From assembly GCA_903919075.1 (NCBI GenBank), contig CAIXGR010000094.1, positions 32,213-96,212 of the forward strand: a stretch of DNA of 64,000 nt. Direction: 5' to 3'. Below, piece by piece: positions 582 through 62,322 of the stretch. Every line of letters starts with the position of its first letter. Position 1 is the stretch's first letter. A model generated the notes under the pieces. The model had not been told where the DNA came from, did no database searches, and was given only the letters and a program-made list of their open reading frames with translations. Position numbers and translations under genes: made by a program. Origin of the DNA: an uncultured Bacteroidota bacterium (GTDB lineage: Bacteria > Bacteroidota > Bacteroidia > Chitinophagales > LD1).

Positions 582-635
582 GCTCCCCGCACCCTCTAAC
601 TCCCTAAAGGGAGAACCGCTCTCCAACAAAAAAAA
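582..635. repeat. GC-rich hairpin repeat, family A, copy 1
   Basis: GCTCCCCGCACCCTCTAACTCCCTAAAGGGAGAACCGCTCTCCAACAAAAAAAA. Near-identical to 47236-47289. Contains hairpin CTCCC-TAAA-GGGAG. Confidence 0.7.
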
Positions 636-47235: not shown

Positions 47236-47289
47236 GCTCCCCGCACCCCCTAACTCCCTAAGGGGAGAACCGCCTCCCCCACAAAAAAA
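47236..47289. repeat. GC-rich hairpin repeat, family A, copy 2
   Basis: GCTCCCCGCACCCCCTAACTCCCTAAGGGGAGAACCGCCTCCCCCACAAAAAAA is near-identical to 582-635 in the same orientation. Confidence 0.7.
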
Positions 47290-48093: not shown

Positions 48094-49479
48094 ATGAAAA
48101 AAGCGATTTTCATTTTAATGGTTTCACTTCTTGTTTGCGTTCAAATTAAGGCGCAGTTGTATGGCTGGAGCAAATTGGGAGACGTAAATGAATGGGGAGC
48201 TAATGGAGAAATAAATAGCATATGCAGCGATGCAGCAGGAAATATTTATGCCGCCGGTCAATTTAAAAACGATTCGGGTAATTATTACGTAGCAAAATAT
48301 AATGGAACCATGTGGAGCGAATTGGGTGGATTAAATAGCCTTGCGGCTAATAATTTAATAAGCAGTATATATTGCGATGCTTCAGGCAATATTTATGCAG
48401 CCGGAGGTTTCTCCAATGTTTGGGGCAATTATTACGTTGCCAAATACAATGGAAGCACCTGGAGCGAGTTAGGCGGCCCAGATAGTTTGGCCGCAAACAG
48501 TTATATTTTCAGTATATGTGGTGATGCTTTCGGAAATATTTATGCCGCCGGCGGGTTTACTGATGGGCTTGGATATACTTTTGTAGCTAAATTTAACGGA
48601 ATAACCTGGGGGGAATTAACAGGCTTACACACATATTTCGCTAATGCCGACATTATAAGTATTTGTACCGATTCATTGGGGCATGTATATGCCGCAGGCA
48701 ATCTTTACAACTCTCATTCTCACACTTACGTAGCCAGATATAATGGAACAACTTGGGACGAATTAGGTGGCATAGATGCTTTGGCTGCAAATAATACCAT
48801 ACTATGTATATACAGTGATGCATCGGGAAATATTTATGCTGGTGGTTATTTTAATACCTCCCAGACCAGCGATGGTAATTACTACGTAGCCAAATACAAC
48901 GGAACCATCTGGAACGAATTGGGTGGGGCCGATAGCCTATCTGCAGCAGATGTAATCATTAACATCTGTAGCGATGCCTATGGCAATATCTTTGCAGCCG
49001 GCGCATTTAAAAATGGTTCGAATAATAATTATGTGGCCCAATACAATGGAACAACATGGAGCGAATTGGGCGGCTTGAACGGCTTGGCAGCTAATGGTTT
49101 AATTAATTCTATGTGTGTTGACCCATCGGGAAATATATATGCTGCCGGTTATTTCTCAGACGGGGCTAACATGTGGACAGGAAATTATTATGTTGCTAAA
49201 TATGGCACTTTAACCGGTATTAATAAAATGGGTGCAGCCGGGGCGCTGAATTTATTTCCCAACCCCACCAACAATGCGCTTACAATTTCAACAGGTAATA
49301 CAATAACTGATGCCAGTATTAAAGTGTTCAATATTACGGGGCAGGTTGTTATTGAAAAAAATAATCAAACGGGCGATAAATTTGTTTTGGACTTATCTAA
49401 TCAACCGGCAGGAATTTATTTTGTGGAAGTGCGCAATGGGGAAAATGTTTGGGTTGAGAAGGTGGTGAAAGAGGATTAG
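48094..49479 (+). CDS. secreted seven-repeat beta-propeller-like protein (SBBP-type repeats) with a T9SS C-terminal sorting domain
   Basis: Signal peptide. Seven units of G(N/H)(I/V)(Y/F)A(A/G)G....N..GNYYVAKYNG..W.ELGG...LAAN by my count. C-terminal LNLFPNPTNNALTI...GIYFVEV. Confidence 0.7.
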   Translation: MKKAIFILMVSLLVCVQIKAQLYGWSKLGDVNEWGANGEINSICSDAAGNIYAAGQFKNDSGNYYVAKYNGTMWSELGGLNSLAANNLISSIYCDASGNIYAAGGFSNVWGNYYVAKYNGSTWSELGGPDSLAANSYIFSICGDAFGNIYAAGGFTDGLGYTFVAKFNGITWGELTGLHTYFANADIISICTDSLGHVYAAGNLYNSHSHTYVARYNGTTWDELGGIDALAANNTILCIYSDASGNIYAGGYFNTSQTSDGNYYVAKYNGTIWNELGGADSLSAADVIINICSDAYGNIFAAGAFKNGSNNNYVAQYNGTTWSELGGLNGLAANGLINSMCVDPSGNIYAAGYFSDGANMWTGNYYVAKYGTLTGINKMGAAGALNLFPNPTNNALTISTGNTITDASIKVFNITGQVVIEKNNQTGDKFVLDLSNQPAGIYFVEVRNGENVWVEKVVKED

Positions 49480-49511: not shown

Positions 49512-50657
49512 TTAAACTTTAAATACCTCAAACAATTTTTCTTCCCCTTTCAAAACCTCGCGTATATGTCCGTCATCGGTATCGGTAATAAAAACTTGCC
49601 CGAAATCATTACCGGCTAATAACTCTACTAATTTTTGACTTCTGTCATTGTCTAATTTATCAAAAATATCATCAATCAATACAAGTGGTTTTCTTTCGGG
49701 GTTTTTAATAAAACTGTATTGAGCAAACTTAATGGCAATTATAAAACTCTTCTGTTGCCCTTGTGAGCCGAATTTTTTGAGTTTAACGCCCACCGCTAAA
49801 TCCCCTAAAGGGGACTTTAATACAGATGATGAATCTTCGGCCTGGGGTTTGAGAGCAGGGGTAATGAAAAACTCTATATCGTCTTTATGTATACCTACAT
49901 CTGTTCGTTGAAGCATTAGGTCTCTATCGAAACTCTTTTTTAATAACTCATCGAATGGGGTTTCATTTAATTGCGATTGATAGGTAAAGCCTACTGCTTC
50001 TCTTTCGAAACTTAGTTGGCGGTAAAATGATTGAAAGGCCGGGTATAATTTTTGGATGGCGATTTTTCTTGCTTCGTAAATTTTTATACCGGCATTAATT
50101 ATCTGCTGGTCGTAAGATTCAATTAGGACACGGTCAACACTACGGGTTTCGGCAAAGCGCTTTAAGGCTGCATTGCGCTGGGCCAATACTTTATTATATA
50201 GTATAAGCTGGTTCAAATATTCATGATTAACCTGCGAGATGGTGTTATCAATAAACCTTCTCCTCTCCTCGCTGCTTCCGGTTATTAGTTGGCCATCATC
50301 GGGCGAAATGATGATTGCGGGGAAATTACCAATATGGTCGCTTAGCTTGGTAAGGGGTGTTTCATTAATTATTAGTTCCTTTCTTTTATTGGCGGGTAGT
50401 TTATAAACCAGTTCAAAAGATTCACCTTGTTTTTTAAAGCTTCCTTCGAGCCTGAAAAAATCTTTTTTGAACAAAATATTCTGTTGGTCGACCTGGTTAA
50501 AATAGCTTTTTGTGAGGCACAAATAATAAATGGCATCGAGCAAATTTGTTTTGCCAACGCCGTTATTACCAATAATGCAATTGATCTTCTTGTTGAAGTT
50601 CAACGCAAGATTTTCGTGATTTTTGAAATTAAGAAGTGATATTTTGCCGAGAAACAC
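49512..50657 (-). CDS. recF: DNA replication and repair protein RecF
   Basis: N-terminal NFKNHE...GNNGVGKTNLLDAIYYL Walker A, GSQGQQKSF signature, LVLIDDIFDKLD Walker B. Confidence 0.9.
   Translation of the reverse strand: MFLGKISLLNFKNHENLALNFNKKINCIIGNNGVGKTNLLDAIYYLCLTKSYFNQVDQQNILFKKDFFRLEGSFKKQGESFELVYKLPANKRKELIINETPLTKLSDHIGNFPAIIISPDDGQLITGSSEERRRFIDNTISQVNHEYLNQLILYNKVLAQRNAALKRFAETRSVDRVLIESYDQQIINAGIKIYEARKIAIQKLYPAFQSFYRQLSFEREAVGFTYQSQLNETPFDELLKKSFDRDLMLQRTDVGIHKDDIEFFITPALKPQAEDSSSVLKSPLGDLAVGVKLKKFGSQGQQKSFIIAIKFAQYSFIKNPERKPLVLIDDIFDKLDNDRSQKLVELLAGNDFGQVFITDTDDGHIREVLKGEEKLFEVFKV
49787..49865. repeat. family-A-like hairpin repeat lying in frame inside recF (copy 3)
   Basis: CGCCCACCGCTAAATCCCCTAAAGGGGAC aligns with CGCACCCTCTAACTCCCTAAAGGGAGAAC at 588-616. 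It encodes the extra segment ...KSPLGDLAVG... of RecF. Confidence 0.5.
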
Positions 50658-61275: not shown

Positions 61276-62322
61276 TTATTGTATTGCTATCTGCCCGGTT
61301 GACGCAATAGTATTACCGTCTGTTACAATGTAAATGTAGTTTCCGGTTGTTAAACCTTCCTTGCCCAGTTCGAAATTACCGTTGCTAAGATTAGTTCGGG
61401 TCATTACCACCCTTCCGCTGGTTTCATAAAGTTTAAAAGTAACATTGCCTGTAGTGTTTTGAATTTGCAACACAGCGCTTGAAACCATAGGGTTAGGATA
61501 TATAAGCACTTTAGCTTTTGCATTACCGTTGCTTATCATTAACATCTCATGGTGTTGATTGTGGTTGTTGCCCCCAAGTGTGTCACTACCACCATTGCCA
61601 TTACTATCTCCAGTGGTATCAATTCCACCTGCACCGTTATTATCACCACCAGTATTAATAGTATCGTTACCACCGCTGCCGTTGTCTCCATCTCCGCTAT
61701 GTATGGTGTCATTACCACCTGTTCCATGGTCGCCATTAATATCTATGGTATCATTTCCTCCACTTCCACCATTGTGAATGGTATCGTTGCCTCCACTACC
61801 GTGATTACCATCTCCATTGGGTATAGTGTCGTTACCGCTAGCCCCATGGTCCCCATCGTTATCGATTATAGTATCATTTCCACCGCTGCCGTGATCGCCG
61901 TCGCCGTGGTTAATAGTATCGTTGCCGCCGGTTCCATGGTTGCCACCGTTGTCGCTGGTGGTATCATTTCCACCACTGCCATGGTTAATGGAGTCGTTGC
62001 CGCCACTACCATGGTCACCATTTCCATTGTGTATAGTATCATTTCCTCCACCGTCTCCATGATGTGTAGTATCACCCCAATGAATACCGCCATGACTTTC
62101 AATAGAATCATGCATAAACTGATGAAAGTGGTTATCCATATGAGAAATAGTATCATGGTTAGCATGCCCATGTGTGTGAATGGTATCATTTCCCTCATGG
62201 TGTCCATGATGATCAAATGCGCTTACCTTTGAAGTTAAGAGCAGTAAAAAAAACATTACAGAAAGTACGGGTGAAAGCAATTTAATGCTTTCTGATTTTT
62301 GGAAAAAGGCTAGTGTTTTCAT
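61276..62322 (-). CDS. secreted His/Asp/Gly-rich GGNDTI tandem-repeat protein with a T9SS C-terminal sorting domain
   Basis: Signal peptide. His-rich head (HHGHHEGNDTIHTHGHANHDTISH...). About a dozen units of G.GDHGSGGNDTI.N. C-terminal IYPNPMVSSAVLQI...GNYIYIV CTD. Confidence 0.7.
   Translation of the reverse strand: MKTLAFFQKSESIKLLSPVLSVMFFLLLLTSKVSAFDHHGHHEGNDTIHTHGHANHDTISHMDNHFHQFMHDSIESHGGIHWGDTTHHGDGGGNDTIHNGNGDHGSGGNDSINHGSGGNDTTSDNGGNHGTGGNDTINHGDGDHGSGGNDTIIDNDGDHGASGNDTIPNGDGNHGSGGNDTIHNGGSGGNDTIDINGDHGTGGNDTIHSGDGDNGSGGNDTINTGGDNNGAGGIDTTGDSNGNGGSDTLGGNNHNQHHEMLMISNGNAKAKVLIYPNPMVSSAVLQIQNTTGNVTFKLYETSGRVVMTRTNLSNGNFELGKEGLTTGNYIYIVTDGNTIASTGQIAIQ
61550..62215 (-). repeat. tandem coding repeats (~42-45 bp unit) of the GGNDTI protein
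   Basis: Periodic GGTAATGATACnATT-type units are visible on the minus strand. They also create long spurious ORFs in other frames (61549-62232+, 61866-62216-). Confidence 0.75.

Follow-up and report, generated by a model that had tools for sequence, protein, structure and literature searches.

The recF gene on a 64,000-nt stretch of DNA from an uncultured Bacteroidota bacterium (Chitinophagales, lineage LD1; assembly GCA_903919075.1, contig CAIXGR010000094.1, positions 32,213 to 96,212; this whole stretch is called the window) encodes a RecF protein with an extra segment just ahead of its ABC signature motif. Our data demonstrate that this segment originated from a dispersed repeat, that it is read in frame, that it occupies a loop predicted to be disordered, and that the same site is occupied in several related lineages. 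We consider it likely that the segment is the relic of a small non-autonomous palindromic repeat, resembling a repetitive extragenic palindrome (REP) or a MITE (a miniature transposable element with inverted repeats), that entered recF without breaking its frame. The gene and the parts of its insert are given here by their positions in the window.

49512 to 50657, minus strand: recF coding sequence, 381 amino acids, intact, with every invariant residue of the family present.
49788 to 49862, minus strand: inserted segment, codons T266 to G290, peptide TPALKPQAEDSSSVLKSPLGDLAVG; predicted to be disordered, with a net gain of 23 residues over the 14-residue spacer.
49792 to 49817, plus strand: well-kept repeat unit ACCGCTAAATCCCCTAAAGGGGACTT, antisense to recF and read as KSPLGDLAV; it matches the consensus at 25 of 26 positions.
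49801 to 49814, no strand assigned: core hairpin TCCCC-TAAA-GGGGA with a perfect 5-bp stem.
49839 to 49862, minus strand: decayed left arm, ACCCCTGCTCTCAAACCCCAGGCC on the coding strand; remnant of a sense unit that is perfect in P0002, the closest RecF relative.

The window protein matched SMC_N in Pfam (E = 1.3e-21), its top matches in the PDB were the RecF structures 5z67-69 (E = 1.5e-32), and a Foldseek comparison of its model with RecF structures gave template-modeling (TM) scores of 0.80-0.87. It has the SMC_N/ABC ATPase fold, with the Walker A, signature (SQGQQK) and Walker B motifs all present. The ratio of nonsynonymous to synonymous substitution rates (dN/dS, or omega) was 0.05 between the window gene and its closest relative and 0.02-0.07 across the recF comparisons, which indicates strong purifying selection. 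We measured the spacer between HKDD and SQGQQK in 117 parsable RecFs taken from a search of 5.8 billion proteins. It was 14 residues in 78 of them and 19-41 residues in the remaining 39, and it is 37 residues in the window RecF. By the 14-residue baseline, therefore, 23 residues are extra, which corresponds to 69 nt of surplus DNA (about 49788-49862). When GTDB species were scanned with the RecF query (best match 68% identical), the spacer was 14 residues in 61 of the 63 parsable RecFs from Bacteroidota. An initial annotation, made from the letters of the window alone, had counted 36 residues between VGIHKDD and GSQGQQKS, put the usual spacer at about a dozen and the excess at 23-25, and described a hairpin, TCCCC-TAAA-GGGGA, inside a preserved reading frame. 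The count was exactly as quoted, and our measurements agree with the rest: the hairpin is present at 49801-49814 and the open reading frame (ORF) is intact and under purifying selection. The same annotation had reasoned that a conserved segment at this position in distant Bacteroidota RecFs would refute an inserted repeat; the 14-residue spacer in 61 of 63 is the opposite of that.

We then asked where the segment lies in the protein, a structural mapping that the initial annotation had proposed. An AlphaFold2 model of the window RecF, built with 74 aligned sequences, had a mean predicted local distance difference test score (pLDDT) of 89.7 and a predicted TM score of 0.88. Residues 276-292 scored below 50, with the rest of the model around 90 or more, and the insert follows the strand at 260-266 and precedes the signature helix at 299-317. 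The low pLDDT and the position between strand and helix therefore suggest that the insert is a disordered loop and sits at a beta-hairpin tip. In the model, then, the insert is placed in a disordered surface loop ahead of the ABC signature motif, a site predicted to be compatible with the fold.

At the DNA level, the consensus of the repeat unit defined below matched the window once, with one mismatch, and matched none of 100 shuffled sequences. Perfect 5-bp C-rich hairpins are rare in the window (39% GC): there are three, the one in recF and those at 600-613 and 47254-47267. The closest RecF relative, P0002 (85% amino acid and 81% nucleotide identity), has two perfect units at the same place, TCCACCCCTAAATCCCCTAAAGGGGACTT and AAGTCCCCTTTAGGGGATTTAGGGGTGGGA, separated by 13 nt. 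This insert is a perfect palindrome with a stem of 28 bp (folding energy -33.6 kcal/mol, z = -8.4). In the window insert the long palindrome has been lost (folding z = -0.9) and the 5-bp core hairpin alone has been kept. The right arm and the flank GTGGG are common to both copies. Over the decayed left arm, nucleotide identity to P0002 falls to 57-63%, compared with about 81% for the whole gene. The window copy is an old, half-eroded version of the unit pair that is perfect in P0002.

The unit belongs to a large dispersed family. We scanned metagenome contigs with the 18-mer AAATCCCCTAAAGGGGAC and recovered at least 147 copies on at least 120 contigs; the flanks were unique in all 144 copies that had enough flanking sequence to be scored. 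Five bases 5' and two bases 3' of the 18-mer were 94-99% conserved even though the search did not require them, and the borders were sharp. This conservation beyond the searched sequence, up to sharp borders, defines a 26-nt unit, RCCCCTAAATCCCCTAAAGGGGACTT. The unit consists of a C-rich tag, RCCCCT, followed by the hairpin AAATCCCC-TAAA-GGGGACTT. Related subfamilies on the same contigs are built likewise of a C-run tag, a short A/T spacer, a C-stem, a TAAA or TGAA loop and a G-stem. Over 34 unit variants, only the outermost stem pair covaried (C-G in 16, T-A in 9, unpaired in 9). No Rfam family reached the gathering score with the unit and insert sequences; the sub-threshold matches to microRNA precursors were spurious and arose from the long hairpins.

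Units frequently occur as inverted pairs with spacers of 13-130 nt. Such dimers were seen in loci L090, L097, L099, L116, L136, L143, L178 and L179 as well as in the recF of P0002. Elements of about 95 nt, with 26-nt inverted ends around a short non-coding core, are present in L143, L136, L162 and L116; the one in L143 occurs there twice, in opposite orientations and 2 kb apart, and again in L136 and L162. Predicted viral contigs from IMG/VR (L217-L230) added 16 copies with the conserved core CCCCT…GGGGAC in 14 stretches, again with unique flanks. These copies are a possible route of horizontal spread; no DUF559 gene (see below) lay near the unit copies of these viral stretches. The initial annotation had held that a segment without further copies would be an ordinary lineage-specific loop. 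At least 144 metagenome copies with unique flanks, together with the 16 on viral contigs, make the segment part of a family.

Nearly all of the copies listed are intergenic, and long ORFs span just a handful. Four of the six reading frames of the unit are free of stops and encode turn peptides rich in Pro, Gly, Ser and Lys (PKSPKGD, KSPLGDL, PLNPLKGT). Besides recF, in-frame units are found in a UvrA-like gene (two copies), two histidine kinases, a glycoside hydrolase family 2 (GH2) enzyme and a Wzy-type protein. The histidine kinases have about 38 residues more than ZraS, and the GH2 copy is in an interdomain linker. Both units of the UvrA-like ORF (L173:6416-11635) are read as EPLNPLKGTY. 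Other inserts of low complexity, IRDTRYEIRDTGYAVRDTRYAIRESHIS, are also read in frame in that ORF and may derive from a different small repeat family.

The genes beside the units include a candidate partner. Of the Pfam families matched by the 148 ORFs that lie 400 nt or less from a unit, DUF559 recurred most often (8 members, best E = 3e-35), and the MTES_1575 nuclease family, which is related to DUF559, was second. By tblastn, DUF559 ORFs were present in 10 of 120 loci that bear units and in none of the 80 other loci from Bacteroidota (Fisher P = 0.006). At L165:2835-3358, a 411-nt DUF559 ORF lies between perfect 27-nt inverted units 470 nt apart, so that the whole element is about 525 bp; like brackets surround a DUF559 ORF in L183, in L192, at L214:9127-9651 and at L216:9897-10427. 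The cassette protein matches PF04480 (DUF559) and PDB 3hrl (E = 1e-13), and its family membership predicts a PD-(D/E)XK nuclease of the Vsr-like kind. DUF559 is placed together with Vsr and a homing endonuclease from a group I intron (PMC3424549). At least 3375 close homologues belong to the family of the cassette protein; most are on contigs shorter than 2 kb, and the named ones are from Chitinophagaceae. Among 176 ORFs within 400 nt of units, on contigs whose flanks are short, none had an HUH-type motif in the size range of 110-260 amino acids, and Y1_Tnp was not among the recurrent Pfam neighbors.

At about 525 bp, the cassette resembles a selfish element of very small size. We propose, tentatively and with the balance still on the side of doubt, that the 26-nt unit is both terminal repeat and recognition site of an undescribed tiny selfish element of Chitinophagales, consisting of two hairpin ends and a Vsr-like DUF559 gene in about 525 bp, and that cuts by the nuclease followed by copying repair would scatter the units and keep them perfect. 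If this were true, unit-templated repair would explain why recF units can match the consensus at 26 of 26 positions despite saturated synonymous sites (below), and a selfish element would explain the repeated occupation, in the same orientation, of the recF loop and of loops in other repair and signaling proteins. As a separate observation, L165 is orthologous to L183 and L216, which come from related genomes, and its DUF559 cassette is flipped relative to the same flanks; this could be an inversion between the inverted ends or a re-insertion.

The recF loop has been occupied in many lineages, most of them represented by short metagenome contigs. Hairpin peptides are still visible in 11 of the 39 homologues (of 117) with a longer spacer. 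Across 120 RecFs, we found 13 hairpin-type peptide motifs, all at this site and none elsewhere in RecF. We masked the insert and built a neighbor-joining tree of 108 RecFs. Filled and empty alleles are interleaved in it as sister pairs (P0031/P0042, P0029/P0039, P0053/P0056, P0049/P0057 and P0048/P0035-P0054), and in every third of the gene the filled alleles are nearest to their own empty sisters, at up to 95-100% amino acid identity. This ruled out a spread of filled alleles as large recombination tracts; P0031/P0042 was the sole pair with a mosaic pattern (below). The recF genes of P0029 and P0031 carry a single sense-oriented unit, ACCCCTAAATCCCCTAAAGGGGACTT, read as TPKSPKGDL. A second subfamily, GCCCCCAAACCCCC[GA/AT]AAGGGGGCTT, read as PQTPKGGF, is present in those of P0048, P0049 and P0038. 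At least two unit subfamilies therefore occupy the site, and P0097 has a third hairpin type. We tried deriving the P0097 insert from tandem hairpin repeats downstream on the same contig, and this candidate was rejected with a local alignment score of just 11. Downstream of a recF gene at L213:5816-6612, we noted three tandem repeats of about 245 nt, each with the hairpins CCCTCCCCTAAAATTAGGGGAGGG and CCGATCCGCCAAAGGCGGACGGGG; they may represent either an array of structured RNAs or a repeat element.

The units in recF are better preserved than the genes around them. Both units of P0002 and those of P0029 and P0031 are identical to the consensus at 26 of 26 positions, and the window unit at 25. 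Between insert-bearing lineages, synonymous sites are saturated, with proportions of synonymous differences (pS) of 0.64-0.92: P0001 and P0002 differ at pS 0.64, or 1.4 substitutions per synonymous site (dS), and P0029 and P0031 at pS 0.92. Third codon positions within the unit are nevertheless identical at a dS of about 1.4. Pristine units beside saturated synonymous sites cannot have come from simple vertical neutral descent. Their state calls for units that arrived recently, for ectopic conversion by copies elsewhere, or for selection acting on the nucleotides themselves. Of these, general selection for a hairpin within recF is unlikely, since many members of the clade have decayed inserts and the left arm in the window has decayed as well.

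These observations fit a sequence of events in which a non-autonomous palindromic repeat would have landed in frame in a permissive surface loop of recF. Two units placed tail to tail would have made a palindrome of about 70-80 nt, of which the antisense unit is nearly intact in the window and the sense unit decayed. Open frames that encode turn peptides, at the surface tip of a beta-hairpin, would account for the tolerance of the insert by a protein under strong purifying selection. The units may be mobilized, or refreshed by ectopic conversion, by the DUF559 nuclease of the cassette, which shares the unit as its terminal inverted repeats. The loop would be hit again and again either through a permissive protein site combined with a preference for target and orientation, or through exchange of short DNA patches.

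Several findings weigh against this interpretation. The mobility of the unit is read from sequence, and no transposition event was seen directly. There was no clean target-site duplication among the unit flanks examined: 26 flank pairs had a direct match of at least 6 nt, where about 10.5 were expected, and part of that excess came from tandem arrays and longer conserved elements. DUF559 is not known to act as a transposase or in homing. The 26-nt unit has no further copy in the window, a DUF559 gene is absent there too, and neither was found in the 21 kb that surround recF in P0029. The single-unit recF inserts are all in one orientation and one frame although four frames are open, which random independent insertions would be unlikely to give and which points to a single origin with later spread or loss, or to a targeted process. 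Finally, the first and second types of recF insert are collinear over 30 nt and share CTTAAATGCA (P0029, P0049, P0038). Common descent accounts for this no less well than independent insertions do.

The last two points also speak for the strongest alternative, in which the loop received its insert once in an ancient recF and the insert was inherited vertically and was repeatedly and exactly lost, with the hairpin kept for a role in recF (for example, a structure in mRNA or DNA that tunes expression). One site, one orientation and one frame for all inserts, gapless collinearity of the two types up to a common 3' flank, T-A to C-G changes that preserve stem pairing, and nucleotide conservation greater than the protein requires would all follow from it. 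However, the exact 26-nt unit is conserved at no fewer than 144 unrelated sites and hence not in recF alone, and many inserts have decayed to the point of having no hairpin (e.g., TPVSNDSAGAD), as the left arm of the window has. Presence and absence also differ between sister alleles that are 95-100% identical in amino acid sequence, and the alternative requires at least 8 exact restorations of the 14-residue spacer. We regard it as improbable.

The unit might instead be a recombination or uptake signal, or might have spread by homologous exchange of short patches of recF. The DNA uptake sequence (DUS) of Neisseria and the uptake signal sequence (USS) of Haemophilus are conserved, 10-12 nt long, often in inverted pairs and also found inside genome-maintenance genes, toward which those of Neisseria are biased. 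Our unit likewise is short, is extremely conserved between contigs, is often in inverted pairs and is present in repair genes (recF and the UvrA-like gene). Moreover, the recF genes of P0031 (L208) and P0042 (L209) are about 99.5% identical in nucleotides at both ends and about 87% over the central 600 nt (nt 370-985), where the insert lies. This pattern is either a recombination mosaic or a chimeric metagenome assembly, both contigs being shorter than 2 kb. Uptake sequences arise by substitution within genes, whereas the 26-nt unit is added sequence, and it serves as terminal inverted repeats both in a gene cassette and in the elements of about 95 nt found in two orientations, as in a transposon. 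Furthermore, over all three thirds of the gene the nearest neighbor of a filled allele is its own empty sister and not another filled allele, and these bacteria are not known to be competent. This alternative is somewhat less probable still than a single ancient insertion.

An ordinary lineage-specific expansion of the loop, with a chance hairpin and no kinship to a repeat family, could appeal to the single copy of the unit in the window and to the unremarkable folding energy of the insert. It is effectively refuted, and left with a very small residual chance, by the 25 of 26 match to a unit with at least 144 copies elsewhere, by the perfect palindrome in the closest relative and by third codon positions that are identical at a dS of about 1.4. 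The data are metagenome assemblies and palindromes can be fold-back artifacts, but the same recF was recovered in three independent assemblies with differences of 0-1 nt, which means that the insert is not an assembly artifact, and the frame runs on into conserved RecF sequence on either side, leaving an assembly or gene-calling error a negligible prospect.

We compared the relic of a palindromic repeat that we favor with known systems. The Rickettsia palindromic element (RPE) was first reported as a repeat of about 150 bp in Rickettsia (PMC10969869), and RPEs occur between genes and in frame within unrelated protein genes, leaving the host proteins intact and lying at structurally compatible surface positions (PMC10969869; PMC3733652). 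The initial annotation had likened the recF segment to RPEs, and the likeness is borne out: the insert is capable of forming a hairpin, is in frame, leaves its host intact and maps to a predicted surface loop, and the family as a whole is palindromic and found both between genes and in frame. The differences, which come from published descriptions, are a unit of 26 nt (69-81 nt as a pair), free-living Chitinophagales as hosts, and a single loop of one gene occupied in many lineages.

Intragenic REPs have been described in frame in uvrA, uvrB, recBCD and dnaE2, where they encode 20-30 residues, in Opitutus, Thioalkalivibrio and others (Di Nocera et al. 2013; PMC3733652). Within the Bacteroidetes/Chlorobi group, the supplement of that survey covers two Chlorobi only, and recF is unmentioned (PMC3733652). 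Like REPs and their compound forms, the bacterial interspersed mosaic elements (BIMEs) and the REP doublets called REPINs, our family has a tagged hairpin unit in the 20-40 nt range that is dispersed, mostly extragenic and frequently arranged in inverted dimers that fold into longer hairpins. Like intragenic REPs, it has occasional in-frame copies in replication and repair genes, here recF and the UvrA-like gene. One end of a REP is marked by the tetranucleotide GTAG or CGTC (PMC3733652); in contrast, RCCCCTAAATCCCCTAAAGGGGACTT and its complement contain neither GTAG/CTAC nor CGTC/GACG. Unlike REPs with their REP-associated tyrosine transposase (RAYT), the units had no HUH/Y1 transposase beside them in the short flanks available, and a DUF559 nuclease recurs there instead.

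Bacterial MITEs (Correia, ERIC, BOX, Nezha and others) are, like our elements, short and non-coding, with terminal inverted repeats; MITEs share these with a longer coding element, for which the DUF559 cassette is a candidate in our family. In-frame fusions of MITEs with host ORFs are known (PMC10969869). The family described here differs from MITEs in that the candidate coding partner is only about 525 bp and carries a Vsr-like nuclease gene, and no clear target-site duplication was seen among the flanks compared. The homing endonuclease I-Bth0305I (PDB 3r3p) offers a further parallel: the cassette protein falls in the Vsr/DUF559 clade, and the recF insert has a patchy presence at one site in a conserved gene. 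Unlike in homing by I-Bth0305I, the recF insert has no nuclease gene, and the units are at hundreds of different sites. In the searchable literature, we found no prior description of the unit sequence, of DUF559 mobility or of in-frame repeats in Bacteroidetes. In-frame palindromic repeats as such are already known; the repeat family, the phylum, the recurrence at a single loop of recF and the possible nuclease partner are new.

Until now, in-frame insertion of palindromic repeats has been best known from Rickettsia and from a small number of Proteobacteria and Verrucomicrobia; these results add free-living Bacteroidota as hosts and recF as a target gene. One exact loop, occupied across related lineages with filled and empty alleles, is a natural experiment on how mobile DNA makes protein loops, and the same alleles bear on what keeps the copies of a repeat identical. 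DUF559 becomes a testable candidate enzyme for a repeat family that lacks a RAYT-type transposase, and the frequent appearance of this gene family on very short metagenome contigs is accounted for. The insert also explains the variation in RecF length in Chitinophagales, and peptides of the PKSPKGD and KSPLGDL types can be flagged as derived from repeats.

The window has two intergenic elements of its own, which the initial annotation called family A.

582 to 635, plus strand: intergenic element 1, between convergent genes; core at 590-618 with the same layout of tag plus hairpin.
47236 to 47289, plus strand: intergenic element 2, 83% identical to element 1; core at 47244-47272.

Both are at 3' ends of genes. 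The initial annotation had aligned the recF insert with these elements and had read TCCCC/GGGGA versus CTCCC/GGGAG as compensatory changes. We built a covariance model solely from unit variants outside the window and scanned the window with it. The recF copy scored 29.5 bits (E = 4e-5), element 1 scored 17.2 bits (E = 0.03) and element 2 scored 13.3 bits (E = 0.28), with noise in that scan at 8.2 bits or less. The two elements thus rank second and third. Direct alignment of the recF copy with family A is real but modest, with matches at about 19-20 of 26 positions and with gaps. Family A is plausibly, at best, a sister subfamily of the 26-nt unit. It is not the source of the recF insert, which matches the 26-nt unit at 25 positions, and copies of its type were absent from every fetched locus. 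The compensatory reading is not borne out within one lineage: the two stems differ as subfamilies do, and the outermost pair alone covaries.

In elements 1 and 2, one G-run has two C-runs as alternative pairing partners (CTCCC-TAAA-GGGAG or GGGAG-AACCGC-CTCCC), and each element is followed by an A-run and not by a T-run. A terminator scan that covered only the element at 47236-47289 gave no flag there. Adjoining recF, the plus-strand gene at 48094-49479 encodes a 461-amino-acid protein made of 147-nt (49-residue) tandem repeats with the pattern GNIYAAG...YVAKYNG...W.ELG, and its C-terminal tail resembles a type IX secretion sorting signal. A minus-strand coding region at 61640-62210 contains a repeat with a 45/75-nt period (families D2-D5).

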